In this document: positions 3,798-32,000 of the stretch, in pieces
Position numbering within the stretch: the first letter of the stretch is position 1
Layout: each line of letters begins with the position of its first letter
The notes under the pieces: generated by a model
What the model was told of the DNA's origin: nothing
Seen by the model: only the letters and a program-made list of their open reading frames with translations
Databases searched by the model: none
Assembly (NCBI RefSeq): GCF_000015225.1
Contig: NC_008698.1
Span: 1,530,001-1,562,000, forward strand
Direction of reading: 5' to 3'
DNA from: Thermofilum pendens Hrk 5
GTDB taxonomy: Archaea > Thermoproteota > Thermoprotei > Thermofilales > Thermofilaceae
DNA: 32,000 bases
Made by a program: the position numbers and the translations under genes

Positions 3798-4568
3798 CTA
3801 TACGAGCTCCTCCGGTATGTTGTCCGGCTCGAAGGCTACCCTCGGCTGGAGCCCCGCCCTCCTCAGTTGCTCCACGACGTGGGGGTATAGGAAGACGTAC
3901 TCCTCCTCGAACTCCTCGACGAGCGATCTGTCTATCTCGGCAAGCCTGGCTTTGAGCTCGTCGACCGCTCGGGGCTCGGAGAACGACAGCATAACCGCGG
4001 GGTGCGCGGGGACTCCTTCGTCCAGCAGGTTCCTGAGGGCTTCCAGCTGGAGCCTGTAGAACTCCCTCCTCGCCCCCGTCAACAAGTGGAACTCCTCCTC
4101 GCTCGCCCCCTTAAGCGACACCCTTACGTGCACGGAGGAGAACTTCGAGAGGTCCCTCGCCTTCGACTTATCCGCGCCTATCAGTATTCCGTTGGTCTCG
4201 AGCACGAATCGGAATCGCCCGTCCGCCTCCAACAGCTCTATGACTCTCAGCAAGTGATCCCACGCTATCGTGGGCTCGTTCCCGGAGATCCTGACGAGCC
4301 TGTACCCCCTCCTACCGGCTATGGAGGCTAGCCGCTCGTAGACCTCCTCGGGAGAGTAGAAACGCCCGGCACCGCTCGGCCTATCCCTGACCCTCCACCC
4401 CCAGCAGAAGACGCAACGCAGGTTGCAACCCACGCAGTCCGCCGTGGCTATGCCACCGTACCACCTCCCGCCCCTGAACCTGTAGTACCTCCTCTCGGAG
4501 CCCCGCGCAACCATCCTCCGCACGGCCTCCGCGAGGAGGATGGGGTCGTAGCCGCGCTCACCGCTCAA
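3798..4568 (-). CDS. Radical SAM enzyme, unknown substrate
   Basis: CVGCNLRCVFCW is the CxxxCxxC radical SAM cluster motif. ISGNEPT is the GGE-like SAM-binding motif. The start is either TTG 4568 (11-nt overlap with the upstream stop) or ATG 4514. Confidence 0.8.
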   Translation of the reverse strand: MSGERGYDPILLAEAVRRMVARGSERRYYRFRGGRWYGGIATADCVGCNLRCVFCWGWRVRDRPSGAGRFYSPEEVYERLASIAGRRGYRLVRISGNEPTIAWDHLLRVIELLEADGRFRFVLETNGILIGADKSKARDLSKFSSVHVRVSLKGASEEEFHLLTGARREFYRLQLEALRNLLDEGVPAHPAVMLSFSEPRAVDELKARLAEIDRSLVEEFEEEYVFLYPHVVEQLRRAGLQPRVAFEPDNIPEELV

Positions 4569-5487
4569 CTCCGCCCACCCCGCGGCACTCGCGCCTCAAG
4601 GGGCACTCGCCGCAACCACCCCTAGAGCAGTACTTCCTGTCGTGCACGTAGAGCGCTGTCTGCACCCAGCCCGCCAGCCTCCCGAAGCACTCGGCGGCTA
4701 GCCACCTCAAGCAATCTCCGCGCGCCGGGCAGTCCCCGCACCTGTACCTCCTGCACAGCCTCGCCTCCGGCAGACGCACCCCCTCGAAGAGACCAAGCCT
4801 CCGGTTCATGGCGGCAAAGTGCCTGTCGACCGGCGCCGAGGCGGTGTCCGCCCTCGCGAACAGCAAGGTCGCGTCAGCGGTCTTCGGACCCACGAAGCGG
4901 CACCTGAGCAGGAAGAGCCTCAGCTCCGCGCTGTCGCGTGGCCAGCCCCCTGCTACGCACCTGACGGCTTGGGGGAGCCTCCTGAGCTGGTAGCTCCCCC
5001 CGATCCCCGGCGCGAGCTCGGCCGCTTCGAGGGGGTCTCCGCTCATCCTCCAGAGGCGCCTAGCCCAGGAAAGCACGTTTACGTGGTAGCTCGTGGACTG
5101 CGAGAGGAAGACTGCGGTGAAGATGTGTAGAGGGTCGTAGGTATCGACCGAGAGGCCGAGGCCCGGGTACGCCTCCTCGAGCGCTTCCAGCAACCAGTAG
5201 AGCCTATCGCACACTCTGCAAGACTCCTTGACTTCGAGGAACCAGAGGCCAGAGTACTCCTCAACTTCCCCCCTGGGACAAGTTGAAACCACCGTGTCGC
5301 CCCTCTGCGCTATCCAGCACCCAGCCGAGCGTCCTGCCAGCTTGACGTACCGGCCGTCTACCTCCTCGAACAGCGAGAGAGTGAATGAGGGGTAGGGGGT
5401 TAAACCTAGGTCGAGCCCTCTCGCAGGAATTTTCAACGCTGACATCCACCATGATACGCACGTAGCAACTCTAAAACGCTTCCTCAC
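4558..5487 (-). CDS. HhH-GPD superfamily DNA glycosylase-like protein with duplicated C-terminal Cys motif
   Basis: Helix-hairpin-helix FVGPKTADATLLF is followed by PVDRH at the catalytic Asp position. The N-terminal region is AlkA/Ogg-like. The C-terminus carries CX4CX2CX5C twice. Start is GTG 5487, with ATG 5445 as the alternative. Confidence 0.7.
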   Translation of the reverse strand: MRKRFRVATCVSWWMSALKIPARGLDLGLTPYPSFTLSLFEEVDGRYVKLAGRSAGCWIAQRGDTVVSTCPRGEVEEYSGLWFLEVKESCRVCDRLYWLLEALEEAYPGLGLSVDTYDPLHIFTAVFLSQSTSYHVNVLSWARRLWRMSGDPLEAAELAPGIGGSYQLRRLPQAVRCVAGGWPRDSAELRLFLLRCRFVGPKTADATLLFARADTASAPVDRHFAAMNRRLGLFEGVRLPEARLCRRYRCGDCPARGDCLRWLAAECFGRLAGWVQTALYVHDRKYCSRGGCGECPLRRECRGVGGVER

Positions 5488-5504
5488 AGCAAGCGTAGAC
5501 CAAG

Positions 5505-6575
5505 CTATAGCTCCAGCGCGGCTCGCCTGTTCACCGGGTCCGTATACTCGTTGTTCTCGTCTATCAAGGAGTGCTTCTTCAGGTGCTGGAGAACCTCGTA
5601 TAGCGCCCTGTCGCTGACCTCTCTACCCTCGGCCCTCTCCAGCTCTCTCTTCAGCTCGCTCCATTCCTTCACGCCTCTCGCGAGCAACCTCATCACCAGC
5701 CTGTACCTCCTGCTCATACGCGTGGAGAGGAATTCTTCGAGCTCCCTCCTAGCGAGGGCTGTGGCCTCGCTAACTATCTCCTCGAGGGAGCCTTTCCCGC
5801 GTAGCCTCAGGTAGCCGTAGTACGTAAGCCACCCTATTATGCCGTCCAGCTCGTTCACAGCTCTCTCCAGCTCCCTCCCCTCAACCTCGAGGCCTGCCTC
5901 CTCGAAGCCCCTCCTGAGAAAGTCCAGCGACTCCTCCGCCGAGAGCTTCCTCGTCCTAACCTCCACGTAAGCCCTCCCGTAGAGAGGCCCCTCGGGGTTG
6001 CCGAGAACCCCGTAGAGCACGCCCATCTCAGAGCCTGACAGCACGAAGGAAACATTCCTGTTGAAGTCGTAGGAGTGGGCCACAGCGTTTTGCAACGCGA
6101 GCCCGAAGCCCGTCCTAGCCCTCTGAAACTCGTCTAGCACGACCACGACCTTCCTCCCGAGCCTCTCCCCGAGCTCGTCCAGCGCGTCGAAGAGCTCGCT
6201 CAGCAAGGGCCTCCCCCTTGGAGACCAGTCCAGGGAGACCTCGAGCCCCATGAAGCTTACACCCCTAACTCTCGACAAAACCCTTCGGAAAAGCTCCCCT
6301 ACCCCTCCCCCCAGCCTCCGGTAGGTCTCGCCGAAGCTCCTCGACAAAAGTTTGTAGATCCCGGCGGCGGACGAAGCCCCCTCCCTCAGGTCGACGTACA
6401 CGTACACCTCTCCCAGCTCGTTGAGAGCCGTTAGGATGAGCGAGGTCTTCCCAGTCCTCCTCAGCCCCGAAACCACGACCAGAGGCTCCCCGACGAACTT
6501 CTCAAGTTCTCCCAGCTCCCTTTCAAAGTCGTAAAGATCCTCCTTCCTCTCTTTCGGCCTAGGGTCGAATAGCAT
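5505..6575 (-). CDS. Archaeal AAA+ ATPase (PF01637/COG1672-like) with C-terminal winged-helix-like tail
   Basis: Walker A GLRRTGKTSL and Walker B VVVLDEFQ. The N-terminus MLFDPR...FERELGEL is typical of the family. I place the start at ATG 6575. The ORF track extends to GTG 6644, but that extension is encoded by the tandem palindromic repeat. Confidence 0.75.
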   Translation of the reverse strand: MLFDPRPKERKEDLYDFERELGELEKFVGEPLVVVSGLRRTGKTSLILTALNELGEVYVYVDLREGASSAAGIYKLLSRSFGETYRRLGGGVGELFRRVLSRVRGVSFMGLEVSLDWSPRGRPLLSELFDALDELGERLGRKVVVVLDEFQRARTGFGLALQNAVAHSYDFNRNVSFVLSGSEMGVLYGVLGNPEGPLYGRAYVEVRTRKLSAEESLDFLRRGFEEAGLEVEGRELERAVNELDGIIGWLTYYGYLRLRGKGSLEEIVSEATALARRELEEFLSTRMSRRYRLVMRLLARGVKEWSELKRELERAEGREVSDRALYEVLQHLKKHSLIDENNEYTDPVNRRAALEL

Positions 6576-6577
6576 GG

Positions 6578-6613
6578 CTTCCGCACCGGAAGTAACTTCC
6601 GCACCGGAAGTAA
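6578..6613 (-). promoter_or_regulatory. Perfect 18-bp tandem duplication; each unit contains the 15-bp palindrome CTTCCGGTGCGGAAG (candidate operator)
   Basis: The minus strand reads GGCTTATTA-CTTCCGGTGCGGAAG-TTA-CTTCCGGTGCGGAAG-CC-ATG. The repeats end 2 nt before ATG 6575. A TTATTA TATA-like element abuts the first unit. Confidence 0.55.
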
Positions 6614-6682
6614 TAAGCCTGTCGTTCACATGACAGTTTTGCACGACTACGCTTTAGAGGCAGAGCGTACTTCTCCGGAGGA

Positions 6683-7861: not shown

Positions 7862-8755
7862 CTACTCGAGGGGCCTCAGGGACCTTTCGAGCACGCCGGC
7901 CTCGAGGAGAGCGTCGAGAACGACGTCCGGGATGTAGAGCTTCCCCTTCTTCCCCACGCCGATCATTTCCACTAGCTCCTCGTCGAGGAAGTCGCGTAGA
8001 TCTTCGAGGCTTACCCGCCGGGCGACGCCGACCTCCCTGTACTCGCCGACCACGTATATGTCTACAGGCGCGGTTTTGTGCCCGAGCCTTAGCTTCGCTG
8101 TCTCCACGTGCTTGATCCCGAGGTGCTCCAGGAATACGGGCTCGAGGTTCTCCCAGTCCGTGGCCATCCCGGACAGTATGTAGCTGGCTATCCTCCCCTC
8201 CGGAACCTCTATGTAGTCGCCCTCGACCCTTATCGCGAACTCCTTGTACAGCCTGAGCATAAGCCTGCGGGCCACCCGGACCCTCCTCCTACCTGGCTCC
8301 AGCGTCTTCCTGGCTAGGGCGAGAACCTCCTTCTCGACGCCCCTCCTCACGAAGCGGTAGTTCAGGGTGACTTCGAGCATCCACTCCAGCGCCTCCCCGC
8401 CGCCGTACACTCTGCGGCCCCTCCGCGTAACCTTCGCGCCGGTAGCGCTCTTCAGGAGTGACGCCACCTTCTCCGCCTCCTCCTCGCTCCTCATGACGGC
8501 GTAGAACACCTTCCCGTACTTAGCGATGGCGCTCCCAGCGCCTATCCTCATTATGCGTAGCAGATCCCCGCCTATCTCCAGCGAGGTCTTATCGGCGATC
8601 TTGTACGCCAGGGTCTCGACGTTCTCGCCCGCCAGGTAGAACGTCACGTAGTCGCCTTCTTCGGCGAGCGTGTATTTAACCCCTAAGGCCTCGAAGAGAG
8701 CCTCTAGGAGTATCGACTCGTCCTTCGGCGAAGTGATAACCAGTAGCGGCTCCAC
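7862..8755 (-). CDS. Hypothetical protein (no motif recognised)
   Basis: 297-codon ORF whose composition and codon bias resemble its neighbours. No overlapping competitor of similar quality. I recognised no domain. Confidence 0.6.
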   Translation of the reverse strand: MEPLLVITSPKDESILLEALFEALGVKYTLAEEGDYVTFYLAGENVETLAYKIADKTSLEIGGDLLRIMRIGAGSAIAKYGKVFYAVMRSEEEAEKVASLLKSATGAKVTRRGRRVYGGGEALEWMLEVTLNYRFVRRGVEKEVLALARKTLEPGRRRVRVARRLMLRLYKEFAIRVEGDYIEVPEGRIASYILSGMATDWENLEPVFLEHLGIKHVETAKLRLGHKTAPVDIYVVGEYREVGVARRVSLEDLRDFLDEELVEMIGVGKKGKLYIPDVVLDALLEAGVLERSLRPLE

Positions 8756-8898
8756 GATTCACAAGCCGGTAAGGCTGGTTTAAAGGTTAACTCTTACCCC
8801 GCGACGGTTTTGCGGCGGTTGCCGAGGGAAAGATCAACTACCACCTTTAAGTAGTAGCGACGAAAAACTTAAATCTTTGCATCTTGGCTTATTTAGCG

Positions 8899-10257
8899 AT
8901 GAGCCAGCAACAAAACAGGTTGGTTTTAGCCTCTATCGCCGTAGGGATAATAGCTCTCCTAGTGAGCCTCTACGCCGTTGTAACCGTTCAGTCGCTGGCA
9001 TCCGCGATTAGCGATCTCAAAGCCTCGATAAGCAACCTCCAGGGCACGGTTTCGAGCCTCCAGCAACAAGTCGGGAAGATATCCCAGCAACCCGCGCCCA
9101 CTACACCCCCCGTACAGAAAGTAAAGCTGGTGGTGATCGGCCCGTGGGCGGGTGACGAGGCGAAGTACTTCCAGGCCGTGATCGACGCCTACGTAAAGAC
9201 GCACCCCAACGTCGAGATTGAGTACAGGACTATGCGCGCCGAGGACGTAGCGGCGACAATGCCCATACAGTTCGCCGCCGGCGTAGCTCCTGGAGACGTA
9301 ATCTTCGGGTGGGCGTGGTTCATCGCCAAGATGGGCAAGGAGGGGCATCTAGTAGACCTCACAGGCATAATCAAGGAAAACGAGTACGTACCGGGAATCG
9401 TCGACGCCGTGAAAGCCGACGGCAAGATCTGGGGTGCACCGTTCACGATGTGGCTAAAGCCTGGCTTCTGGTACAGGAAGTCCTTCTTCCAGAAGTACGG
9501 GCTAACAGAGCCGAAGTCCTACGCCGAGTTCGTGCAACTACTGGAGAAGATCAAGGGGATACCCGGCGTGAAGAACCCCATAGCCACGGGAGACGGGGTC
9601 GGGTGGCCGATAAGCGACATTGTCGAACACTTCATAATCGCGTACGGCGGTCCACAGATGCAACTAAACCTCATATCCGGGAAGACTAGGTTCACGGATC
9701 CCAGCGTGAGGAAGGTGTTCTCCGACTACCTCATACCGCTACTCCAGAAAGGCTACTTCAGCGAGCCGATAGAGTGGACCACTGTCATACCCAAGTGGTG
9801 GGCAGGCGAGTACGGGCTCTACTTCATGGGGACCTGGATCACGGGGATGGTCGAAGACCCGAACGACCTAGACTTCTTCCCCTTACCCGAGAGTAAGGGC
9901 GTCGTTGGAGGCGCGGACTACGCCTTCGTGCCGAAGTACTCGAGGAACGTTGACGCCGCGCTCGACTTCATCAAGTACCTCGCCACGGAGGGGCAGGTCG
10001 TACACGCGAGCGTACCTTCCGGTAAGATCCCGACGTGGACGAAGGCACCCGTCGAGAAGCTATGGAAGCCCATGCAGAGTGTATACACCAAGATCACCGG
10101 CAAGGGGCTAGCCATACTGCCTGACCTCGACGACTCTATCGGGGGAGACTGGCAGAAGCTCTTCTGGGATCAGCTGAAGCTGTTGTGGGTCAACCCAGGA
10201 GCCCTAGACTCCGTCCTGAAGACGCTGGAGAGCAGTCAGCCGAAGCCGTCGGGTTAA
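8899..10257 (+). CDS. ABC transporter extracellular solute-binding protein (family 1, sugar type; trehalose/maltose-like by context)
   Basis: N-terminal TM anchor, an S/Q-rich segment and a PAPTTPP linker precede an SBP_bac_1-like domain. Two sugar permeases follow. The CTTAAATC TATA-like box at 8868-8875 lies 28 nt upstream of ATG 8899. The ORF track start TTG 8884 is too close to that box. Confidence 0.8.
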   Translation: MSQQQNRLVLASIAVGIIALLVSLYAVVTVQSLASAISDLKASISNLQGTVSSLQQQVGKISQQPAPTTPPVQKVKLVVIGPWAGDEAKYFQAVIDAYVKTHPNVEIEYRTMRAEDVAATMPIQFAAGVAPGDVIFGWAWFIAKMGKEGHLVDLTGIIKENEYVPGIVDAVKADGKIWGAPFTMWLKPGFWYRKSFFQKYGLTEPKSYAEFVQLLEKIKGIPGVKNPIATGDGVGWPISDIVEHFIIAYGGPQMQLNLISGKTRFTDPSVRKVFSDYLIPLLQKGYFSEPIEWTTVIPKWWAGEYGLYFMGTWITGMVEDPNDLDFFPLPESKGVVGGADYAFVPKYSRNVDAALDFIKYLATEGQVVHASVPSGKIPTWTKAPVEKLWKPMQSVYTKITGKGLAILPDLDDSIGGDWQKLFWDQLKLLWVNPGALDSVLKTLESSQPKPSG

Positions 10258-10271
10258 GCTAAAAAGGTCCA

Positions 10272-10285
10272 TTTTCTTTTTCTTT
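10272..10285 (+). terminator. Oligo-T tract after the binding-protein gene (possible attenuating archaeal terminator)
   Basis: TTTTCTTTTTCTTT lies 15 nt after the stop codon. Archaeal termination commonly uses T-runs. Confidence 0.35.
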
Positions 10286-10300
10286 CGTGGGGAGACCTGC

Positions 10301-11194
10301 ATGAAGAATGCTTCTACGAAAGACCTCTTGGTCTTCCTGGGGATTCCCCTCTCGGTAATCCTGGTGTTCGTGGTGTACCCGATAGTGGCGACCGTTGTTC
10401 TCAGCTTCACCGCTGACGGCGCGCTTTCCGCAAAGAACTACGTCGAAGTACTGACCGAGAGCATCCCGCTAAAAGCGCTACTCGTAGCTAACCCGGGGCC
10501 GTACCCGCCTTGGGGCGCCCTTGTGCACAACGCTCTCTGGATCGTGATAGCGGTTCCTGCGGTTGTATTCCTAGGGATGCTCCTCGCCTACACCCTCAGG
10601 GGTGTCCCGGGCTCCAGCTTTATCGCCGGCGCGATCTTCCTGGGGATGGTTCTACCGGGCGTTGTGAGCGGGCTGATAATCAGGTTTATGTTCGACGATA
10701 GCCTGGGGATTTTCCCCAGGATTTTCGGCGCGCTAGGCGTACCGCTACTCTCAAAGACGTGGACCATATACCCCCAGACGGCTCTGCTGGCGCTTATACT
10801 CGGCTCGGTGTGGCTATGGCTGGGCTTCAGCGTTACGCTTTACCTGGCAGGCCTCGACTCAATACCCTCGAGCATGGTCGAGGCAGCGCTCGTCGACGGG
10901 GCGTCCCAGTGGGAGATATTCACGAGAATAATCGTACCGCAACTAAAGCCGATAACCGTGGTGGTAACGCTGATGACCGTGATGTGGATCCTCAAGATAT
11001 TCGACATAGTGTACGTGGTCACCGGCGGGGGGCCCGGAGGCTCCTCCACAGTGTTAGCCCTGATAATGTACACGTACTTCGCGAGCTCCCTCGAGTACGG
11101 CAAGGCCGCCGCTGTTGCCGTGATCCTGGCGCTCCTCACGCTGGTGCCCGCGTACTGGTACATAAGGATGATTCTAAGCGGTGAGAAGAGATGA
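10301..11194 (+). CDS. Sugar ABC transporter permease (MalF/UgpA-like)
   Basis: 297-aa polytopic protein. EAA-loop region MVEAALVDGASQWEIFTRIIVPQLKP. Confidence 0.85.
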   Translation: MKNASTKDLLVFLGIPLSVILVFVVYPIVATVVLSFTADGALSAKNYVEVLTESIPLKALLVANPGPYPPWGALVHNALWIVIAVPAVVFLGMLLAYTLRGVPGSSFIAGAIFLGMVLPGVVSGLIIRFMFDDSLGIFPRIFGALGVPLLSKTWTIYPQTALLALILGSVWLWLGFSVTLYLAGLDSIPSSMVEAALVDGASQWEIFTRIIVPQLKPITVVVTLMTVMWILKIFDIVYVVTGGGPGGSSTVLALIMYTYFASSLEYGKAAAVAVILALLTLVPAYWYIRMILSGEKR

Positions 11195-12030
11195 GGCGCA
11201 GGCTTGCACCCTCAAGGGTAGCCGTAGCGGCGGCCCTCTGGGTCTTCACCGCGCTATGGCTCCTGCCCTTCGTAGCCCTAGTGGTTATGTCCGTGAAGCC
11301 GTACAAGGAGGTCGTCCTCAACGGCTGGTGGACGCTACAGGGAAACTACTCCCTCGAAAACTACGTCGAGGTACTCCTTAACCCATCCTTCAACTTCGTC
11401 AAGGGCCTTGAGAACTCGTTCGTAGTGGCCTCTCTGAGCACAGTGATACCCGTGGTCTTCGCGGCGATGATGGCATACTCCCTCACGTACCTCTCGTTTA
11501 GGTACAGAACTCTGCTCTTCGTCTCGATACTGGTCTTCATGTCCGTGCCCCAGCAAATGGTGGTCATACCGCTGTTCTCGCTCTACGTGAAGACAGGGCT
11601 ACACGACAAGCTTGCAGGCATAATACTCCTCCACAGCGCGTGGGGAACTCCGTGGATAGCGTTCTTCATGAGGAATTACTTCAGAATGCTACCGCAAAGC
11701 TTCGTCGAGGCAGCCAGGATAGACGGGGCATCGGAGTTCACGATCTTCTGGAAAATCCTCCTGCCGCTAAGCCTGCCCGCAGTCGTCGCGGCCTCCGCGA
11801 TACAGTTCACGTGGGTCTGGGGAGACTTCTTCTACGCGATGGTGTTCCTCCCGTCGCCATCAAACTACGTTGTCACACAACGCCTAGCGTTGCTAAAAGG
11901 CGAGTTCCACATAGACTGGGGCTTGCTGAGTGCCGGCGCTATACTGGCGATGCTACCCCCTCTACTGGTCTACGTCGCGTTCAAGAAGTACTACGTGAGG
12001 GGCTTCGCCGGGTGGGGCGTTAAAGGCTAG
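11191..12030 (+). CDS. Sugar ABC transporter permease (MalG/UgpE-like)
   Basis: 279 aa. EAA loop FVEAARIDGASEFTIFWKILLPLSLP. 4-nt ATGA overlap with the upstream permease. Confidence 0.85.
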   Translation: MRRRLAPSRVAVAAALWVFTALWLLPFVALVVMSVKPYKEVVLNGWWTLQGNYSLENYVEVLLNPSFNFVKGLENSFVVASLSTVIPVVFAAMMAYSLTYLSFRYRTLLFVSILVFMSVPQQMVVIPLFSLYVKTGLHDKLAGIILLHSAWGTPWIAFFMRNYFRMLPQSFVEAARIDGASEFTIFWKILLPLSLPAVVAASAIQFTWVWGDFFYAMVFLPSPSNYVVTQRLALLKGEFHIDWGLLSAGAILAMLPPLLVYVAFKKYYVRGFAGWGVKG

Positions 12031-12039
12031 CATTACGGC

Positions 12040-13080
12040 CTAAGGAGCCCGGGGCAGTACCTTCAGCCTGAAAACCCTGCCCTCGACGTCCTCCAGCCTA
12101 GCCCCCAGCCCGCCGACGGTGATTTTTCTCTGGCCCACCTCGAGCACGAGGGAGACGCGTACCCCCTGACCGTTCTCGGATATCTCCGCGGGTCTACCGG
12201 TAAGCGTCACGCTTCTCCCCGTCCTCCTCTCCACGCCCGCGACTGTAACCTCCGCGCCTAGCCCCCTGCCGAGGCACTCCTTTAAAACCTCGTTAAGCAA
12301 CCAGATAGACGTAGCCGTGTACTCGAAGCCCTCCACGGGCTCGAAGGGTTTCACCACGCTACTCACCCTCCACAGCGCGTGGTAGTAGAAGTCCAGGAAG
12401 GTCCTGATGAGATCCTCCTCCGCGATTTCAAGCGCGTAGGACTCCCTGAGGATCACCGCCCTGGCGGAGTCGGCTATGACGAGAGGGATTACACCCACGC
12501 TCCTCAACCTCAGGCCGAGCCACGGCTCCGCGGGGAGAGGCTCCTCCACGCCCTCGTAGTAGACAACCGCTACGAGCCTTCTAGCCGCGCCGCCCCCAAC
12601 ACTGTGCGGAAGGATCTCTCCCACCAGGCGCGGGGGGCCTGCTACCAGGGCATCGTAGGAAGCGTTTTCCAGCATCTTCCTCGCCCTGAGAATCGCCTCG
12701 GACTTGTTCTTAATGACCCTCACCCTGGGCGCCTGCACGTCCTCCGCCTGCAGGTAGACGCGGCTAAGCGCCTTCAAAGCTCTCTCCTTGTTGCTCTCGA
12801 TCCTCCGGCTCGCTAGTCCCGCCAAGATCTCTATGGCTCGGGAAGGCTCTATGGCTCTATACCGCTTCGGCTTCGAAAGGGCGACTTCCACGAGCCCCTT
12901 GCTCGCCAGCGATTCGAGAGTCTCGTAGACCCTGGGCTGGGGGACGCCGGTTAACGCTACGATCTCGTTCGCAGTCCTCTCCCTCCCGTCGGCGATGGCG
13001 AGGTATACCCTCGCCTCGTACGGCTTTAGCCCCAGCTCGACTAGGGCATTGTAGGCGTCCTCGAACTCCGGCTCCATCAC
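12040..13080 (-). CDS. trmB: TrmB family sugar-responsive transcriptional regulator
   Basis: N-terminal wHTH LKPYEARVYLAIADGRERTANEIVALTGVPQPRVYETLESLASKGLVEV is typical of TrmB. The 346-aa length fits the presence of a C-terminal sugar-binding domain. It lies between the sugar ABC genes and treT. Confidence 0.85.
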   Translation of the reverse strand: MMEPEFEDAYNALVELGLKPYEARVYLAIADGRERTANEIVALTGVPQPRVYETLESLASKGLVEVALSKPKRYRAIEPSRAIEILAGLASRRIESNKERALKALSRVYLQAEDVQAPRVRVIKNKSEAILRARKMLENASYDALVAGPPRLVGEILPHSVGGGAARRLVAVVYYEGVEEPLPAEPWLGLRLRSVGVIPLVIADSARAVILRESYALEIAEEDLIRTFLDFYYHALWRVSSVVKPFEPVEGFEYTATSIWLLNEVLKECLGRGLGAEVTVAGVERRTGRSVTLTGRPAEISENGQGVRVSLVLEVGQRKITVGGLGARLEDVEGRVFRLKVLPRAP

Positions 13081-13098
13081 GACGCTAATAACCGGATA

Positions 13099-13112
13099 GA
13101 AAAAAATATTTC
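13099..13112. promoter_or_regulatory. Shared AT-rich near-palindromic TATA-like element in the 54-bp trmB/treT divergent intergenic region
   Basis: GAAAAAAATATTTC is centred about 25 nt from the trmB start (13080) and about 30 nt from the treT GTG (13135). Confidence 0.45.
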
Positions 13113-13134
13113 TGAACGCAACTACTACTTTTCG

Positions 13135-14379
13135 GTGGTAACTATCAAAGCCACCCCGAGGTACTCCAGGAGAATCGAGGACTACGTGCCCGCCGTGGGT
13201 AGGGAGGATATCGAGGAGCTCGTAAGGGTCGCCAAGAGGTTAAAGGGGGTAAGCGTAGTACACGTGAACTCGACGGCTTACGGCGGAGGAGTCGCCGAGA
13301 TTCTTCACAGCATGGTCCCGGTGATGAGTTCTCTCGGGATCGACGCCAGGTGGGAGGTTCTGGAAGCCGAGGACGAGTTCTTCCAGGTCACGAAGAAGAT
13401 TCACAACGGGCTTCAGGGTAACCCTTCGCTCGTACTCACGGACGAGGACTGGAGAACCTACCTGAAGTGGAACCAGTATAACGCGGAGATCCTCGACCTC
13501 GACGCTGACGTGGTACTCGTGCACGACCCCCAGCCCATGGCGCTACCTATGTTCAAGCGCGGTGCCAGGGGTGTCTGGGTCTGGAGGTGCCACATAGACA
13601 TCTCTTCCCCGAATGCATCCTTCTGGGAAAAGCTCTCCCCCTTCCTCGGGTACTACAGGGGGGTGATAGTACACAGCGAGGAGTACGTTAAAAAGGAGTT
13701 CGAGGACAGAGTCCTGGTATCCCCGCCTAGCATAGATCCTCTCAGCGACAAGAACAGGGAGCTCGGCGAAAAAGAGGTGGAGAGCGTGTTTAAACGCTTC
13801 GGAGTAGACCCCGAAAGACCCGTTATCACCAAGGTTGCCCGCTTCGACCCTTGGAAGGACGTCTTCAGCGCGGTCGACGTCTTTAGAGAAGTGAAGAAGG
13901 AGGTCCCCGGCGCCCAGCTACTCCTCGTGTCCTCCATGGCGAGGGACGACCCAGAGGGCGCGGTTTTCTACGAGAAGGTACTCGGCTACGTTAAGGGCGA
14001 AGAGGGTGTACACATACTGACAGACGCTATCGGTGTCAGGGACTTGGAGGTGAACGCCTTCCAGAGGGGAACCACCGTGGGACTTCACACCGCTATCCGC
14101 GAGGGCTTCGGTCTTGCGGTCACCGAGATGCTATGGAAAAAAGTACCCGTGGTGGCGAGGCCTGTTGGAGGCGTCAAGAAACAAGTGGTAGACGGGGTGA
14201 CGGGATTCACGGCTTGGAGCGTCCAGGAGCTGGCAGAGAGAGTTAAGGCCTTGCTGGCGGACAACCAGCTTAGAGGGAGGTTGGGCGAGGCGGGGCGCGA
14301 GCACGTGAGGAGGAACTTCGTCATTACGCAACACGTGAAGAGGTATCTATCCTTCTTCGGCGAGCTACTGGGAAAATAG
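13135..14379 (+). CDS. treT: Trehalose glycosyltransferring synthase TreT (GT4)
   Basis: Matches Pyrococcus/Thermococcus TreT, as I remember those sequences, over nearly the full length. Examples: VHVNSTAYGGGVAEILHS, LVHDPQP, WRCHIDISSPN, PPSIDPLSDKN, ARFDPWKD, REGFGLAVTE, RNFVITQHVKRYL. Confidence 0.9.
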   Translation: MVTIKATPRYSRRIEDYVPAVGREDIEELVRVAKRLKGVSVVHVNSTAYGGGVAEILHSMVPVMSSLGIDARWEVLEAEDEFFQVTKKIHNGLQGNPSLVLTDEDWRTYLKWNQYNAEILDLDADVVLVHDPQPMALPMFKRGARGVWVWRCHIDISSPNASFWEKLSPFLGYYRGVIVHSEEYVKKEFEDRVLVSPPSIDPLSDKNRELGEKEVESVFKRFGVDPERPVITKVARFDPWKDVFSAVDVFREVKKEVPGAQLLLVSSMARDDPEGAVFYEKVLGYVKGEEGVHILTDAIGVRDLEVNAFQRGTTVGLHTAIREGFGLAVTEMLWKKVPVVARPVGGVKKQVVDGVTGFTAWSVQELAERVKALLADNQLRGRLGEAGREHVRRNFVITQHVKRYLSFFGELLGK

Positions 14380-29974: not shown

Positions 29975-31210
29975 CTATCCCAGCCCGGCTTCCAGCGCTA
30001 GGTCTCGAGCTATCTGGTCCGCCAGCCCTCCCCCTCCGAACCTAGCCCAGACGGCGCACGTCCCCTCGAGGGAAACCATGCAGGGCCCGTACGGCTTCTC
30101 GGGGGTACACTTCTTCATGAACATGGGGCAGTCCGTGGGCTTAGCCTTCCCGAGCGTCACCTCGGCGCACCTACAGCCGGGAGGAGTGTCCTTCCGCCAC
30201 TTCTCGGGCGTCAGCTCCTCGATCCCGAAGTGCCTCAAGGCGTCCAGGCGCCCGTACTTCTCCCTGAGCCTAAGCCCGCTGAGCGGCAGGAACCCTATCC
30301 CCCTCCACGCGTCGTCCACAGCTTCAAACGCCTCGTGTATAGCCGCCTGCGCCTCCAGGTCCCCCTCCCACGTCACCGCCCGCGTATACTCCACTTTGAC
30401 CCCGTACTCCCCCCTCGCCAGTTGCCGCATGATCTCCGCGATACCCATGAGCACGTCTATAGGCTCGAACCCCGACACGACCACGGGCACCTGGAACTGC
30501 TCCGCGACGGGCTCCCACGCCTTCGCCCCGGTAACCGTCGACACGTGGCCCGGCGCTATCACCCCCATGACAGGCGGCTCCGTGGGCTTGTCGCGCAGGA
30601 TGTCCAAGGAGTAGAACATGGCTGGAGGCGTGAGCTTAACGAGGCTCATGAGCTTGAGGTTCTCCGGGAGGCTCCCCGAGACGACCGCGCGGGCGTAGCC
30701 GGGGGCAACGGTCTCGAAGCCTATACCGAGAAAGACCGACTCGCCCCCATGCCTAGAGGCGTCCCTCACGGCGTCCACTAAGCTCACCACGAGCCTCACC
30801 CTACCCCCCGCCGCCCTAGCCTCCTCGAGGGACGAGACGCCGTCCACGGGGTTCACCGCGCGGAGCTTGAAGGTATCCCCGTACGTGTAAACGGTCACCC
30901 CGCTCAGGGAGAGCTCTATAGCCCTCTCGATGTACCAGGAAGGAGTGACGCAGACAGGGCACCCGGGCCCAGCCACCAGCTCGACCCCCTCCGGCATGAG
31001 GCTCCTAAGCCCGAAGTGCACGATAGTCCACTCGTGAGTCCCGCAGAAGTCCATGATCTTGATCCTGTAGTCCCGCCCCTCCCTAGCCCTTATCTCCTCG
31101 AACTTCCTGGCAATATACCCCCTAAGCGCCCCGGCAAGCCTAGCGTTAGACCTGAAAGCCTTCTCCAAGTAGCCAAGCTTCTCCAGAAAAGCGAGCCCCT
31201 GACCCTCCAT
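29975..31210 (-). CDS. hypD: [NiFe]-hydrogenase maturation protein HypD
   Basis: IMDFCGTHEW, GPGCPVCVTP, GFETVAP, APGHVSTVTG and the C-terminal Cys cluster CPMFMKKC...C...C match HypD motifs. Confidence 0.9.
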   Translation of the reverse strand: MEGQGLAFLEKLGYLEKAFRSNARLAGALRGYIARKFEEIRAREGRDYRIKIMDFCGTHEWTIVHFGLRSLMPEGVELVAGPGCPVCVTPSWYIERAIELSLSGVTVYTYGDTFKLRAVNPVDGVSSLEEARAAGGRVRLVVSLVDAVRDASRHGGESVFLGIGFETVAPGYARAVVSGSLPENLKLMSLVKLTPPAMFYSLDILRDKPTEPPVMGVIAPGHVSTVTGAKAWEPVAEQFQVPVVVSGFEPIDVLMGIAEIMRQLARGEYGVKVEYTRAVTWEGDLEAQAAIHEAFEAVDDAWRGIGFLPLSGLRLREKYGRLDALRHFGIEELTPEKWRKDTPPGCRCAEVTLGKAKPTDCPMFMKKCTPEKPYGPCMVSLEGTCAVWARFGGGGLADQIARDLALEAGLG

Positions 31211-31294
31211 ATGTTGGAAAACCCGATTCTGATAGTTAAATCCTTAACCTAATGTGAAAGTCGAAAAAGTAGCGCTACGAGGCAAGTTGCTAGT

Positions 31295-32000
31295 TCAGAA
31301 AAAATCTTTAAGTAGGCTTTTTCTAAACTCGTGGAATTCTCTACTATACTCCTTCAATGCTTGATAAAACTTAAAGTATAAGTAAAAGTATTTCGAATAA
31401 AATTCGACATTTTGTGCAAGGGGTTCGGCACCACCATCTAAAATTTCATCTTTCAATGCTAATGCTTCTCTGTATCCGATTCTGTTCTGAGCCAAAGAGT
31501 AGTGAATCCATCCTCCCACTAGTGTAGGCTCTACGTGCTCCCTTACCACATAGAGAGGCATTCCGAACACGTCAGAGAATATTTGCCTCCAAGTACCTAT
31601 CCGTAGTCCTCCCCCTCCCCCATGAGTAAGGAGAGGGTTAAGTCCGTGTTCTTTCAAGGCTTCTAGAATCATTTTCAGCGTGAAAGCAACTCCTTCCATT
31701 ATTGCCCTAAGCATATCGTTACGCGTTGTAGATAGAGATGCGCCGTAAAATGCACCCCTGAAGTATGGGTCTCGTATCGGGAATCTTTCTCCAGTTAAGT
31801 AAGGTAAAAATACTAGGCCATTAGCTCCGGGCGGCGAGAGCCTAGTCTCTATGTCTAGCAAAGTGAACCTATCAATGTTTGCAGTCTCGGATACAATCTC
31901 CTCTGCAGTAGCAAAGTTTCTTAGAAACCACTCCACGGCTACCCCCGCGTTGTTCACGGCCCCGCCTACTATCCACCGTGAATTACCGGCATAGTACGAG
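31295..32000 (-). CDS. FGGY-family carbohydrate kinase, C-terminal domain (5' end outside window)
   Basis: FLPYLTGERFPIRDPYFRGAFYGASLSTTRNDMLRAIMEGVAF and HGGGGGLR...WRQIFSDVFGMPL match the FGGY_C domain. The frame stays open to position 32000 (…GGAVNNAGVAVEWF). Confidence 0.8.
   Translation of the reverse strand, partial: SYYAGNSRWIVGGAVNNAGVAVEWFLRNFATAEEIVSETANIDRFTLLDIETRLSPPGANGLVFLPYLTGERFPIRDPYFRGAFYGASLSTTRNDMLRAIMEGVAFTLKMILEALKEHGLNPLLTHGGGGGLRIGTWRQIFSDVFGMPLYVVREHVEPTLVGGWIHYSLAQNRIGYREALALKDEILDGGAEPLAQNVEFYSKYFYLYFKFYQALKEYSREFHEFRKSLLKDFF

Follow-up and report, generated by a model that had tools for sequence, protein, structure and literature searches.

A glycosylase with an OGG1-like predicted fold and a radical SAM enzyme, encoded by adjacent genes in heat-loving archaea, may form a DNA-lesion-processing module

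In Thermofilum pendens Hrk 5, the gene for a DNA glycosylase with an OGG1-like predicted fold overlaps the gene for a small radical SAM enzyme. The two genes are neighbors in many heat-loving archaea, where all four possible orientations occur, suggesting a DNA-lesion pathway that has not yet been described. We propose, with moderate confidence, that they constitute a two-gene DNA-lesion-processing module of (hyper)thermophilic archaea, and that the ATPase gene preceding them is a separate unit. The original prediction, made from the window (the whole 32,000-nucleotide stretch analyzed, contig NC_008698.1, positions 1,530,001 to 1,562,000), had placed all three genes in one lesion-processing or base-modification module. 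That reading holds up for the glycosylase and the radical SAM enzyme and fails for the ATPase; a DNA-lesion or base-chemistry role is the best reading of the pair because its synteny is conserved and because the radical SAM enzyme fits no known activase or tRNA-modification enzyme.

The three predicted minus-strand genes are all present, in open reading frames at 5505..6644 (ATPase), 4558..5487 (glycosylase) and 3798..4568 (radical SAM enzyme). Their family assignments were upheld, by Pfam for the PF01637 ATPase and the PF04055 radical SAM enzyme, and by fold and profile alignment for the OGG1-like HhH-GPD glycosylase. The spacing had to be revised. A 17-nt gap between ATPase and glycosylase requires the latter to start at GTG 5487; ATG 5445 is favored by homolog N-termini and by a 295-aa database form (P0121), giving a 295-aa gene product (4558..5445) and, as read from the letters, an intergenic spacer of 59 nt (5446..5504). 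The predicted 11-nt overlap of the glycosylase gene with the radical SAM gene (256 aa from TTG 4568) is supported, residues 6-20 of the radical SAM N-terminus being kept in homologs. Near-gapless packing, on the other hand, does not distinguish this set, as gaps of 23-107 nt occur throughout the minus-strand run from 8755 to 3064. The 59-nt spacer contains a TATA-like TTTTAGA at 5470-5476, centered approximately 28 nt upstream of ATG 5445. Judged from sequence, this spacer is probably the promoter of a separate glycosylase–radical SAM unit, its transcript is probably leaderless or nearly so, and the two overlapping genes are probably co-transcribed from it in the window.

A Pfam scan of the glycosylase returned no family at E <= 0.01, PF00730 included. 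The next-best sequence relatives beyond its own family are canonical EndoIII proteins (E 1e-6 to 1e-4), and these distant relatives are the only ones among its matches to carry PF00730. Its TIGR00588 score was 21.9 bits vs a cut-off of 397.85, over the C-terminal 100 residues only. In a Foldseek search with the AF2 model (pLDDT 95.1), the top 50 PDB matches were all OGG1 chains (TM 0.6-0.7, ~310 aligned columns), and the predicted fold matches OGG1 over its full length, with three domains including the N-terminal beta domain. AGOG (PF09171) was considered as an identity and rejected, given the lack of a Pfam match and the uniformly OGG1 character of those 50 fold matches.

The catalytic residues are those of a DNA glycosylase/lyase. 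The window protein contains an HhH-GPD motif (FVGPKTADATLLF...APVDRH) that matches those of OGG1 and EndoIII in profile alignment. Across the family, G186 and D207 of this motif vary little or not at all, and K188, D207 and four cysteines are invariant among 65 diverse members. By profile alignment, K188 falls on the lysine of OGG1 GVGTKVAD, so that K188/D207 correspond to OGG1 K249/D268, His209 corresponds to H270, and the pocket helix GWVQTxxY corresponds to OGG1 GWAQAVLF (Q315, F319); Q262 is invariant and Y266 near-invariant in the family. The protein thus shares its predicted three-domain fold, catalytic Lys/Asp, His and pocket helix with the human, mouse and Clostridium acetobutylicum OGG1 structures, but identity to these is just 14-18%, the position of OGG1 C253 is occupied by Ala, and an invariant four-cysteine motif that OGG1 lacks is present. 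This motif, C231-x4-C236-x2-C239-x5-C245, lies in the C-terminal part and aligns to the EndoIII 4Fe-4S motif, marking a presumed [4Fe-4S] site. It differs from EndoIII/Nth in its C-x4-C-x2-C-x5-C spacing and does not match PF10576, and the overall fold and N-terminal domain are OGG1-like rather than Nth-like. Between the first two cysteines the window protein has 4 residues, where Thermogladius-type members have 6 (C-x6-C-x2-C-x5-C). Many members carry a second Cys4 motif, which in the window protein is a CX4CX2CX5C at the C-terminus; it is missing from Thermoproteus-type glycosylases, which are nevertheless paired with the radical SAM gene. Modeled fold and conserved residues place the protein in the OGG1 branch of HhH-GPD enzymes, as a predicted bifunctional-type glycosylase/AP lyase that appears to have acquired an EndoIII-like four-cysteine site, predicted to hold a [4Fe-4S] cluster. 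Since the Gln and the aromatic residue of the pocket are retained, we suggest that it flips out a guanine-derived lesion, the probable target of the pair.

Unlike OGG1, this glycosylase has a radical SAM gene as its genomic partner. In agreement with the linkage that had been proposed, the two genes are adjacent in 55 of 95 glycosylase loci, in four arrangements and amid unrelated flanks: glycosylase then radical SAM in 19, radical SAM then glycosylase in 17, convergent in 16 and divergent in 3. Fifteen of the 95 loci were too short to judge; the 80 evaluable ones comprise the 55 adjacent pairs, 4 with the radical SAM gene 0.5-1.2 kb away and 21 without it. One extra Nezhaarchaeota locus also has the genes side by side. 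Pairs were seen in Thermofilum, Korarchaeia, Thermogladius/Desulfurococcales, Thermoproteus-type and Nezhaarchaeota contigs, and adjacent genes often overlap. At the loci most closely related to the window (L094-L097), the radical SAM gene is inverted yet still abuts the glycosylase gene. Where the genes are convergent (16 loci) or divergent (3 loci), the linkage is one of adjacency only, because co-transcription is impossible.

When glycosylases were clustered at 70% identity, the radical SAM gene neighbored 31 of 49 clusters, the next families 8 and 7; it is the sole consistently recurring neighbor. Divergence in one protein tracks divergence in the other (r = 0.73). In a glycosylase subclade lacking the radical SAM gene, a KaiC/RadA-type ATPase fills the same convergent slot. 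The flanks of 65 loci were heterogeneous and of housekeeping character, with 111 genes falling into 89 Pfam families, none seen more than 4 times. At some loci, translation-related genes lie nearby, namely aminoacyl-tRNA synthetases (TyrRS/TrpRS, class II) and tRNase Z. Loci collected from the radical SAM side mostly lack the glycosylase, which adjoins 3 of ~17 orthologs; in Desulfurococcus mucosus none lies within 6 kb of the radical SAM gene, and Infirmifilum lucidum has both genes, apart. Our literature searches returned no description of this pairing.

The radical SAM enzyme matches PF04055 at 85.7 bits vs a cut-off of 29.5. Its CxxxCxxC motif (C48-x3-C52-x2-C55) is invariant, and the protein has one cluster and no auxiliary-cluster domain. 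In an NCBIfam scan, none of the 25 families listed of 33 matched reached its cut-off: MoaA scored best (46.8 vs 325), NrdG2 gave 30.2 vs 131, QueE 24.2 vs 206, PFLA 20.4 vs 232 and the viperin model NF038283 17.9 vs 180. Subfamily models therefore assign it to no known activase or tRNA-modification enzyme, an outcome that the original prediction needed in order to stand. The AF2 model (pLDDT 93.3) has the pyruvate formate-lyase activating enzyme (PFL-AE) as its best full-length structural match (TM 0.64-0.66 at 245 aa). The fold carries no clue to the substrate, as PFL-AE, SkfB, SuiB, LipA, QueE and MoaA score alike.

Homologs 60-79% identical to the radical SAM enzyme occur in Thermofilaceae, Desulfurococcus, Korarchaeia, Nezhaarchaeota and Methanomethylicota. 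Because it is far more conserved than its glycosylase partner, its primary substrate may have nothing to do with the glycosylase. One explanation built on this is that the radical SAM enzyme is a housekeeping enzyme acting mainly on a non-DNA substrate, in RNA modification or a cofactor step, with the glycosylase a lineage-restricted add-on that might act as a partner for nucleic-acid binding or rid DNA of a base product that is related or arises off target. We consider this unlikely. It would account for the high identity across phyla, often without a glycosylase, for the synthetase and tRNase Z genes near several loci, and for the weak scores against the nucleotide-acting MoaA, QueE and viperin. 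However, the flanks are heterogeneous, and the glycosylase retains the full DNA-glycosylase/lyase catalytic set. No tRNA-modification gene, ArcS/TGT or other, adjoins either gene in the ~115 glycosylase- or radical SAM-bearing loci examined; RaSEA, the radical SAM partner of ArcS, is described as mainly euryarchaeal (PMC11298593). Moreover, two bacterial contexts of the radical SAM gene belong to DNA repair: in a Zixibacteria MAG (L013), one ortholog shares an overlap with a TIGR03916-like 'DNA modification/repair radical SAM' gene, and in an Acidobacteriota MAG another is found downstream of uvrA-polX.

It is also conceivable, and in our judgment quite improbable, that the radical SAM enzyme activates or matures the glycosylase, equipping it with a radical, with some post-translational modification or with cluster-related chemistry. 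The structural match to PFL-AE, the cysteine-rich glycosylase with its one or two CX4CX2CX5C motifs, and the tight adjacency of the often overlapping genes are all consistent with such a role. Yet the activase models score well under cut-off (PFLA and NrdG2, above), the radical SAM gene is widespread without a nearby glycosylase, and Thermoproteus-type partners remain paired despite missing the second Cys motif. In addition, the 'AGWVQ' of the glycosylase belongs to the OGG1 pocket helix rather than to a glycyl-radical loop.

The ATPase matches PF01637 (ATPase_2; 54.6 bits vs 33.2), with a C-terminal MCM_C-like winged helix and the Walker motifs GLRRTGKTS and VVVLDEF. It aligns end to end with 2FNA from Sulfolobus (E 1e-60) and 2QEN from Pyrococcus (E 1e-41), PF01637 structural-genomics entries without an assigned function that share its Walker-type ATPase and winged helix. 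Homologs and 2FNA align from the Met at ATG 6575, which we take as the start rather than GTG 6644 (gene 5505..6575, 356 aa). A perfect direct repeat of two 18-nt copies, CTTCCGCACCGGAAGTAA, occupies 6578-6613, and a 6-3-6 palindrome lies within each copy; read on the minus strand, the unit is TTACTTCCGGTGCGGAAG, twice, holding CTTCCG-GTG-CGGAAG. The palindrome is found nowhere else in the window (chance expectation, 0.25 matches). With the start at ATG 6575, the repeat sits in the ATPase promoter, as a presumed operator: it stops 2 nt short of the start codon and lies between that codon and a TATA-like CTTATTA (6611-6617). This layout also precedes 5 of 5 ATPase homologs examined, where the palindromes themselves differ in sequence, and from this combination we suggest that the ATPase is probably autoregulated through the two tandem palindromes. 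Literature searches found no description of this paired-palindrome arrangement. The tandem repeat that had been predicted to precede the set is thus real, but it is a feature of the ATPase family rather than an operator for all three genes.

That the ATPase senses for or regulates the pair, with the operator governing an ATPase–glycosylase–radical SAM operon, is very improbable. The three genes are co-directional and no obvious T-run terminator follows the ATPase. In tblastn over the glycosylase- or radical SAM-bearing loci, 5 ATPase homologs were found and none elsewhere. Outside the window they lie at three loci only: a 43%-identical homolog directly upstream of the glycosylase (L108), a 35%-identical one downstream of it (L112) and two upstream of the radical SAM gene (L006). 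Against an operon, the ATPase is missing from all the other loci examined, ATPase_2 is a flanking gene in just 2 of 65 non-redundant loci, the palindromes follow the ATPase subfamily wherever it is located, and the 59-nt spacer has its own TATA-like box. Beside the pair in two other loci only (L108 and L112) and with an operator-bearing promoter of its own, the ATPase drops out of the proposed module.

The suggestion of an anti-virus module, in which the glycosylase would attack modified viral DNA and the radical SAM enzyme would make or remove a base modification or nucleotide analogue, is scarcely credible. Glycosylases can act in defence, as a preprint indicates (bioRxiv 10.1101/2025.10.29.685425), the radical SAM enzyme weakly matches prokaryotic viperin models (PADLOC pVip, 19.8 bits, besides NF038283), and a distant bacterial ortholog lies in a region of mobile or defence-like character, which encodes an M78 peptidase and DUF763 and has close by an ORF whose sequence we read as that of a reverse transcriptase. 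However, PADLOC gave marginal matches only (pVip and PDC-S27, the latter at 24 bits) and none for the glycosylase, the window neighbors are transporters, GDPD, GNAT, pyroglutamyl peptidase and TrmB/TreT, the 65 loci have housekeeping flanks, both proteins diverge slowly and in a correlated manner unlike defence genes, and an IMG/VR search found no relatives of either family in viral contigs.

Conserved coupling of a radical SAM enzyme to a DNA glycosylase is also seen for the bacterial TIGR03916 radical SAM protein, linked by context association to DUF4130/TIGR03915 and a family-4 uracil-DNA glycosylase (PMC3765255). That enzyme has ~400 aa and a C-terminal HhH, whereas the window enzyme belongs to a different, single-domain family of 250 aa; TIGR03916 is absent among the 25 families listed of 33 that it matched. 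The glycosylase superfamilies also differ (UDG there, HhH-GPD here), and DUF4130, the third partner there, is missing from the archaeal pair. To our knowledge, the TIGR03916 coupling has no demonstrated function. The sole characterised radical SAM DNA-repair enzyme is spore photoproduct lyase, SplB (PMC8307549). It is a single-cluster enzyme that undoes a C-C-bonded lesion via hydrogen abstraction, and by analogy could serve as a mechanistic model for the window enzyme; the family scans detected no sequence relationship between the two, although NCBIfam possibly has no SPL model. SPL acts alone, without a glycosylase, and is mostly limited to spore-forming Firmicutes.

If the glycosylase and the radical SAM enzyme form a DNA-lesion-processing module, both would serve one pathway of (hyper)thermophilic archaea. 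As a small single-cluster protein, the radical SAM enzyme would be limited to 5'-deoxyadenosyl-radical (hydrogen-abstraction) chemistry and would reverse or pre-process a lesion beyond simple base excision; the glycosylase would remove the base and nick the DNA, feeding base-excision repair. Alternatively, the radical SAM enzyme might directly reverse the same lesion class that the glycosylase handles. A more specific version, unlikely as it stands, is that the radical SAM enzyme opens or reverses a C-C-bonded purine lesion, and that the Fe-S OGG1-like glycosylase recognises the lesion or its product and completes base-excision repair. Cleavage of the glycosidic bond alone does not release C-C-bonded purine lesions. 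Candidates would be 8,5'-cyclopurines and guanine(C8)-thymine(methyl) cross-links, which form preferentially without oxygen. If this specific version is correct, the pair would represent a second radical-SAM-dependent DNA repair pathway after spore photoproduct lyase, and would substitute for nucleotide excision repair in archaea without UvrABC.

Three ORFs were read from the sequence on the minus strand between positions 3798 and 6644. The ATPase ORF was assigned a start at ATG 6575 rather than at GTG 6644, since the Met encoded at ATG 6575 aligns with the N-terminus (MLFDxRPKE) of ATPase homologs from the PDB and from metagenomes. The glycosylase begins at ATG 5445, as judged from homolog N-termini and a 295-aa database form, and the gap between the ATPase stop and the glycosylase is therefore 59 nt and not the 17 nt initially claimed. 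A TATA-like TTTTAGA lies ~28 nt ahead of the glycosylase ATG, inside this spacer. The 11-nt overlap between the glycosylase (4558–5445) and the radical SAM gene (rSAM, 3798–4568) was upheld, since conservation of residues 6–20 supports an rSAM start at TTG 4568. Short gene spacing is the rule throughout the minus-strand run from 8755 to 3064 and is therefore, by itself, evidence of nothing. A 297-aa ORF (7862–8755, minus strand), with no Pfam or NCBIfam match, heads the same co-directional run. Scanned with Rfam models and for tRNAs, the window showed no RNA genes.

In context look-ups, the glycosylase was followed by rSAM in Thermofilum MAGs, a Korarchaeum MAG, the comparison loci L089 and L093, Thermogladius (including a complete chromosome) and a Desulfurococcales MAG. 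Thermoproteus-type contigs carried rSAM ahead of the glycosylase with a 4-nt overlap; one of these loci lies beside reverse gyrase and others lie beside ribosomal-protein genes. A metagenome scan with a glycosylase profile added 80 loci; 95 loci carried a glycosylase homolog. Adjacency of rSAM and the Cys-rich glycosylase elsewhere, on which the original prediction depended, was found in four arrangements: glycosylase then rSAM (19 of the 95 loci), rSAM then glycosylase (17/95), convergent, mostly with 4–9-nt overlaps (16/95), and divergent (3/95). In four further loci rSAM was 0.5–1.2 kb from the glycosylase, in 21 the flanks could be evaluated and rSAM was absent, and 15 were too short for adjacency to be judged. 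One additional divergent pair was seen in a Nezhaarchaeota MAG. In the window's nearest relatives (L094–L097, glycosylase 64–66% identical), rSAM is inverted and still abuts the glycosylase.

When neighbours were clustered, rSAM was the sole consistently recurring one, present with 31 of the 49 glycosylase clusters at 70% identity; next came a KaiC-type ATPase (8/49) and ABC ATPases (7/49). Across 65 non-redundant loci, the 111 genes directly flanking the locus matched 89 Pfam families, none of which occurred more than four times. Pairwise divergences of the glycosylase and rSAM were correlated (r = 0.73), rSAM being the slower-evolving partner. Since two single-copy genes would be adjacent by chance in ~0.1% of cases per locus, the linkage is real. 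The view seeded from rSAM is weaker, with an adjacent glycosylase in only 3 of ~17 rSAM orthologs. The frequency of adjacency on this side is poorly sampled, because hits to a generic GCNL[RK]CxFC pattern diluted the contig scan, which yielded ~17 true orthologs among the matches listed. No glycosylase was found within 6 kb of rSAM in Desulfurococcus mucosus, and in Infirmifilum lucidum both genes are present but apart. Literature searches for the glycosylase–rSAM pairing and for COG5014 returned no description of the archaeal pair.

The glycosylase had no match in Pfam and matched TIGR00588 (ogg) below threshold. An AF2 model built from 27 homologs (mean pLDDT 95) gave OGG1 chains, from human, mouse and Clostridium acetobutylicum, as all of its best 50 PDB matches, with TM 0.6–0.7 over ~310 aligned columns that include the N-terminal beta domain. 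The family profile aligned with human OGG1 via GVGTKVAD...PVDVH and GWAQAVLF, so that OGG1 K249, D268, H270, Q315 and F319 correspond to glycosylase K188, D207, H209, Q262 and Y266. Among 65 diverse members, K188, D207 and Q262 are invariant and H209 and Y266 nearly so; C231, C236, C239 and C245 are also invariant. In the profile, this four-Cys motif, which OGG1 lacks, aligns to the [4Fe-4S] motif of EndoIII, and many members, including that of the window, carry a second, C-terminal CX4CX2CX5C motif. In its predicted working the enzyme resembles OGG1, but it passes none of the curated sequence models for OGG1, HhH-GPD and AGOG. An identity as AGOG was rejected, since PF09171 was unmatched and the best fold matches were OGG1. 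As judged by profile and model comparison, the glycosylase is a new branch that joins the fold and pocket of OGG1 with a predicted iron–sulfur site of EndoIII type. An exhaustive HMM search placed at least 137 clusters (50% identity, E ≤ 1e-30) in this family, a size understated by word-index searches (29–35 clusters). Among members whose source records were consulted, most are unnamed or called 'hypothetical protein', and a few 'DNA lyase' or 'endonuclease III'.

Members of 532–568 aa with a C-terminal extension (P0305, P0307, P0311, P0312 and P0313) had been suspected of being glycosylase–rSAM fusions. This was not the case for P0305, the one with a Pfam match, whose extension matches the TFIIB cyclin repeat (PF00382, E 6e-12); P0311 had no Pfam match, and the others are alike by eye. 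Through such a TFB-like fusion, the glycosylase could be linked to promoter DNA or to the machinery of transcription.

The third ORF, rSAM, matches PF04055. Compared with subfamily HMMs, as the original prediction had proposed, it fell in no known class: no NCBIfam equivalog came near its cut-off, the best being MoaA at 46.8 versus 325 bits. MoaA, QueE, NrdG/PFL-AE, viperin and TIGR03916 were accordingly rejected, each being far under its cut-off or not among the matches listed. A PDB sequence search gave MoaA and NifB-type matches only (E ~0.005). rSAM carries a single CxxxCxxC cluster, lacks an auxiliary-cluster domain and, in its AF2 model (pLDDT 93), resembles many minimal radical SAM cores. 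RaSEA, a fellow small archaeal radical SAM enzyme, was weighed as a candidate identity; it is described as mainly euryarchaeal (PMC11298593), and rSAM has no ArcS context in the loci examined. Identity of rSAM is 60–79% across Thermofilaceae, Desulfurococcus, Korarchaeia, Nezhaarchaeota, Methanomethylicota and Culexarchaeia-type MAGs, and a few bacterial MAGs carry more distant orthologs. By these comparisons rSAM can be placed in its superfamily only, and it is unusually conserved.

Among the genomic contexts found once or a few times, a Zixibacteria MAG has an rSAM ortholog (54% identical) overlapping a TIGR03916-like gene for a 'putative DNA modification/repair radical SAM protein' (L013:2440–4324; 320 bits, just below cut-off), and in an Acidobacteriota MAG the ortholog lies downstream of uvrA and a PolX gene (L022:2433–7723). 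In a glycosylase subclade without rSAM, a KaiC/RadA-type ATPase (PF06745, E 2e-55 for L114) occupies the convergent slot that rSAM has elsewhere and overlaps the glycosylase by 8 nt (L113, L114, L117 and L131, ~4385–5190, minus strand). The neighbour at L092:4934–5653 is similar to this ATPase by eye and had no Pfam match. The Zixibacteria, Acidobacteriota and KaiC/RadA contexts, single or few cases each, all speak for DNA metabolism; several loci with aaRS or tRNase Z neighbours run counter to this. In a mobile-looking region of a Pseudomonadales MAG, the rSAM ortholog stands by a DUF763 gene and an M78 peptidase (L018:5089–7759). DUF763 was discarded as a hidden HhH-GPD homolog, with an hhalign probability <1% and just a short HhH-like stretch (GVGPRT) matching. 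In glycosylase-free rSAM loci, a metallo-beta-lactamase-fold gene abuts or overlaps rSAM (L014:5572–6468, L016:4889–5767 and L010:7723–8619); it is a PRK04286-type hypothetical in two Desulfurococcaceae MAGs and tRNase Z in another archaeal MAG.

Two alternatives concern rSAM itself. It may be a housekeeping enzyme with a non-DNA substrate, a less likely reading to which its high conservation and the aaRS and tRNase Z neighbours would point. Alternatively, rSAM and the glycosylase may stand in an activase-type relationship. PFL-activating enzyme is the best full-length fold match of rSAM (TM 0.64–0.66), followed by SkfB, SuiB, LipA, QueE and MoaA; its scores lie far below the cut-offs of the NrdG/PFL-AE sequence models.

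A third alternative adds the upstream ATPase (5505–6575, minus strand) to the pair, under a shared operator. The assignment of this protein as a PF01637-type ATPase with a winged-helix tail was confirmed, Pfam matching a Walker-type PF01637 (ATPase_2) domain and an MCM_C-like winged helix; 2FNA and 2QEN, structural-genomics proteins without known function, align with it end to end. The tandem palindromic element is also real: a perfect 2 × 18-nt direct repeat at 6578–6613, upstream of the ATPase Met, with CTTCCG-N3-CGGAAG in each unit, found nowhere else in the window (chance expectation 0.25 matches). All five ATPase homologs collected have two tandem palindrome copies with a period of 18–20 nt, which follow a T/A-rich TATA-like box and precede the start codon (window 6578–6617, L108:640–682, L112:4735–4787, L006:3290–3345 and L006:4365–4425). 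The palindrome sequence varies by gene (CTTCCG-gtg-CGGAAG, ACTAAC-ggggggA-GTTAGT, TTACA-gggg-TGTAA), TTCTG-ggg-CAGAA being common to two of the five. The element is a feature of the ATPase family, not the control element of a three-gene set, and is therefore uninformative on the glycosylase–rSAM pair. Homologs of the window ATPase occur in only three other collected loci, L108 and L112 (by the glycosylase) and L006 (by rSAM). We conclude that the ATPase is not part of the conserved pair. Autoregulation via each ATPase's own winged helix would yield a kept layout with gene-specific palindromes, which suggests paralog-specific, sequence-specific autoregulation in the family. Literature searches for PF01637 returned no description of this layout, and the paired palindromes would be a first functional handle on this large unassigned archaeal ATPase family.

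The proposed anti-virus role was rejected: a PADLOC scan gave nothing meaningful, the flanks of the 65 non-redundant loci lacked a defence signature, and neither family was found in IMG/VR. The surroundings in the window consist of Liv-type and sugar ABC transporters, GDPD, GNAT, pyroglutamyl peptidase, TrmB and TreT. At 8884–14379, genes for a sugar ABC transporter (solute-binding protein and two permeases) precede those for a TrmB regulator and a TreT trehalose synthase, an arrangement that resembles the Thermococcales trehalose/maltose cluster. Positions 31001–32000 have a G+C of 0.47, versus ~0.65 in the preceding kilobases, and overlap an ORF for an FGGY-type carbohydrate kinase in its C-terminal part (31295–31957, minus strand).

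The pair consists of a protein that has the catalytic residues of a glycosylase/lyase within an OGG1 pocket as well as a Cys4 site, and a single-cluster radical SAM protein, encoded by genes whose adjacency is conserved. We infer that both act on the same class of DNA lesion, probably guanine-derived because the Gln and aromatic pocket pair is retained. In such a pathway, rSAM would use hydrogen-abstraction chemistry to reverse the lesion directly or to pre-process it, as in spore photoproduct lyase, and the glycosylase would excise the base and nick the strand. Speculatively, the lesion could be one of the C–C-bonded purine lesions that anoxia favours; cyclopurines and G–T cross-links are examples, and cutting the glycosidic bond alone does not remove either of these. 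The nearest system-level analogue is the widespread bacterial TIGR03916–DUF4130–UDG association, for whose function we know of no demonstration and whose radical SAM and glycosylase families differ from those of the archaeal pair. This link was reported as a genomic context association (PMC3765255), and spore photoproduct lyase is the only characterised radical SAM DNA-repair enzyme (PMC8307549). Radical SAM–glycosylase coupling and HhH-GPD glycosylases are, as kinds, already known, and there is a modest chance that the archaeal pair represents new repair chemistry. The archaeal pair adds a second genomic coupling between a radical SAM enzyme and a predicted base-excision glycosylase, one that is independent of the first and tightly conserved. 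It offers a two-protein target for biochemistry and, occurring in hyperthermophilic archaeal lineages, may bear on how bulky or cross-linked DNA damage is handled there.
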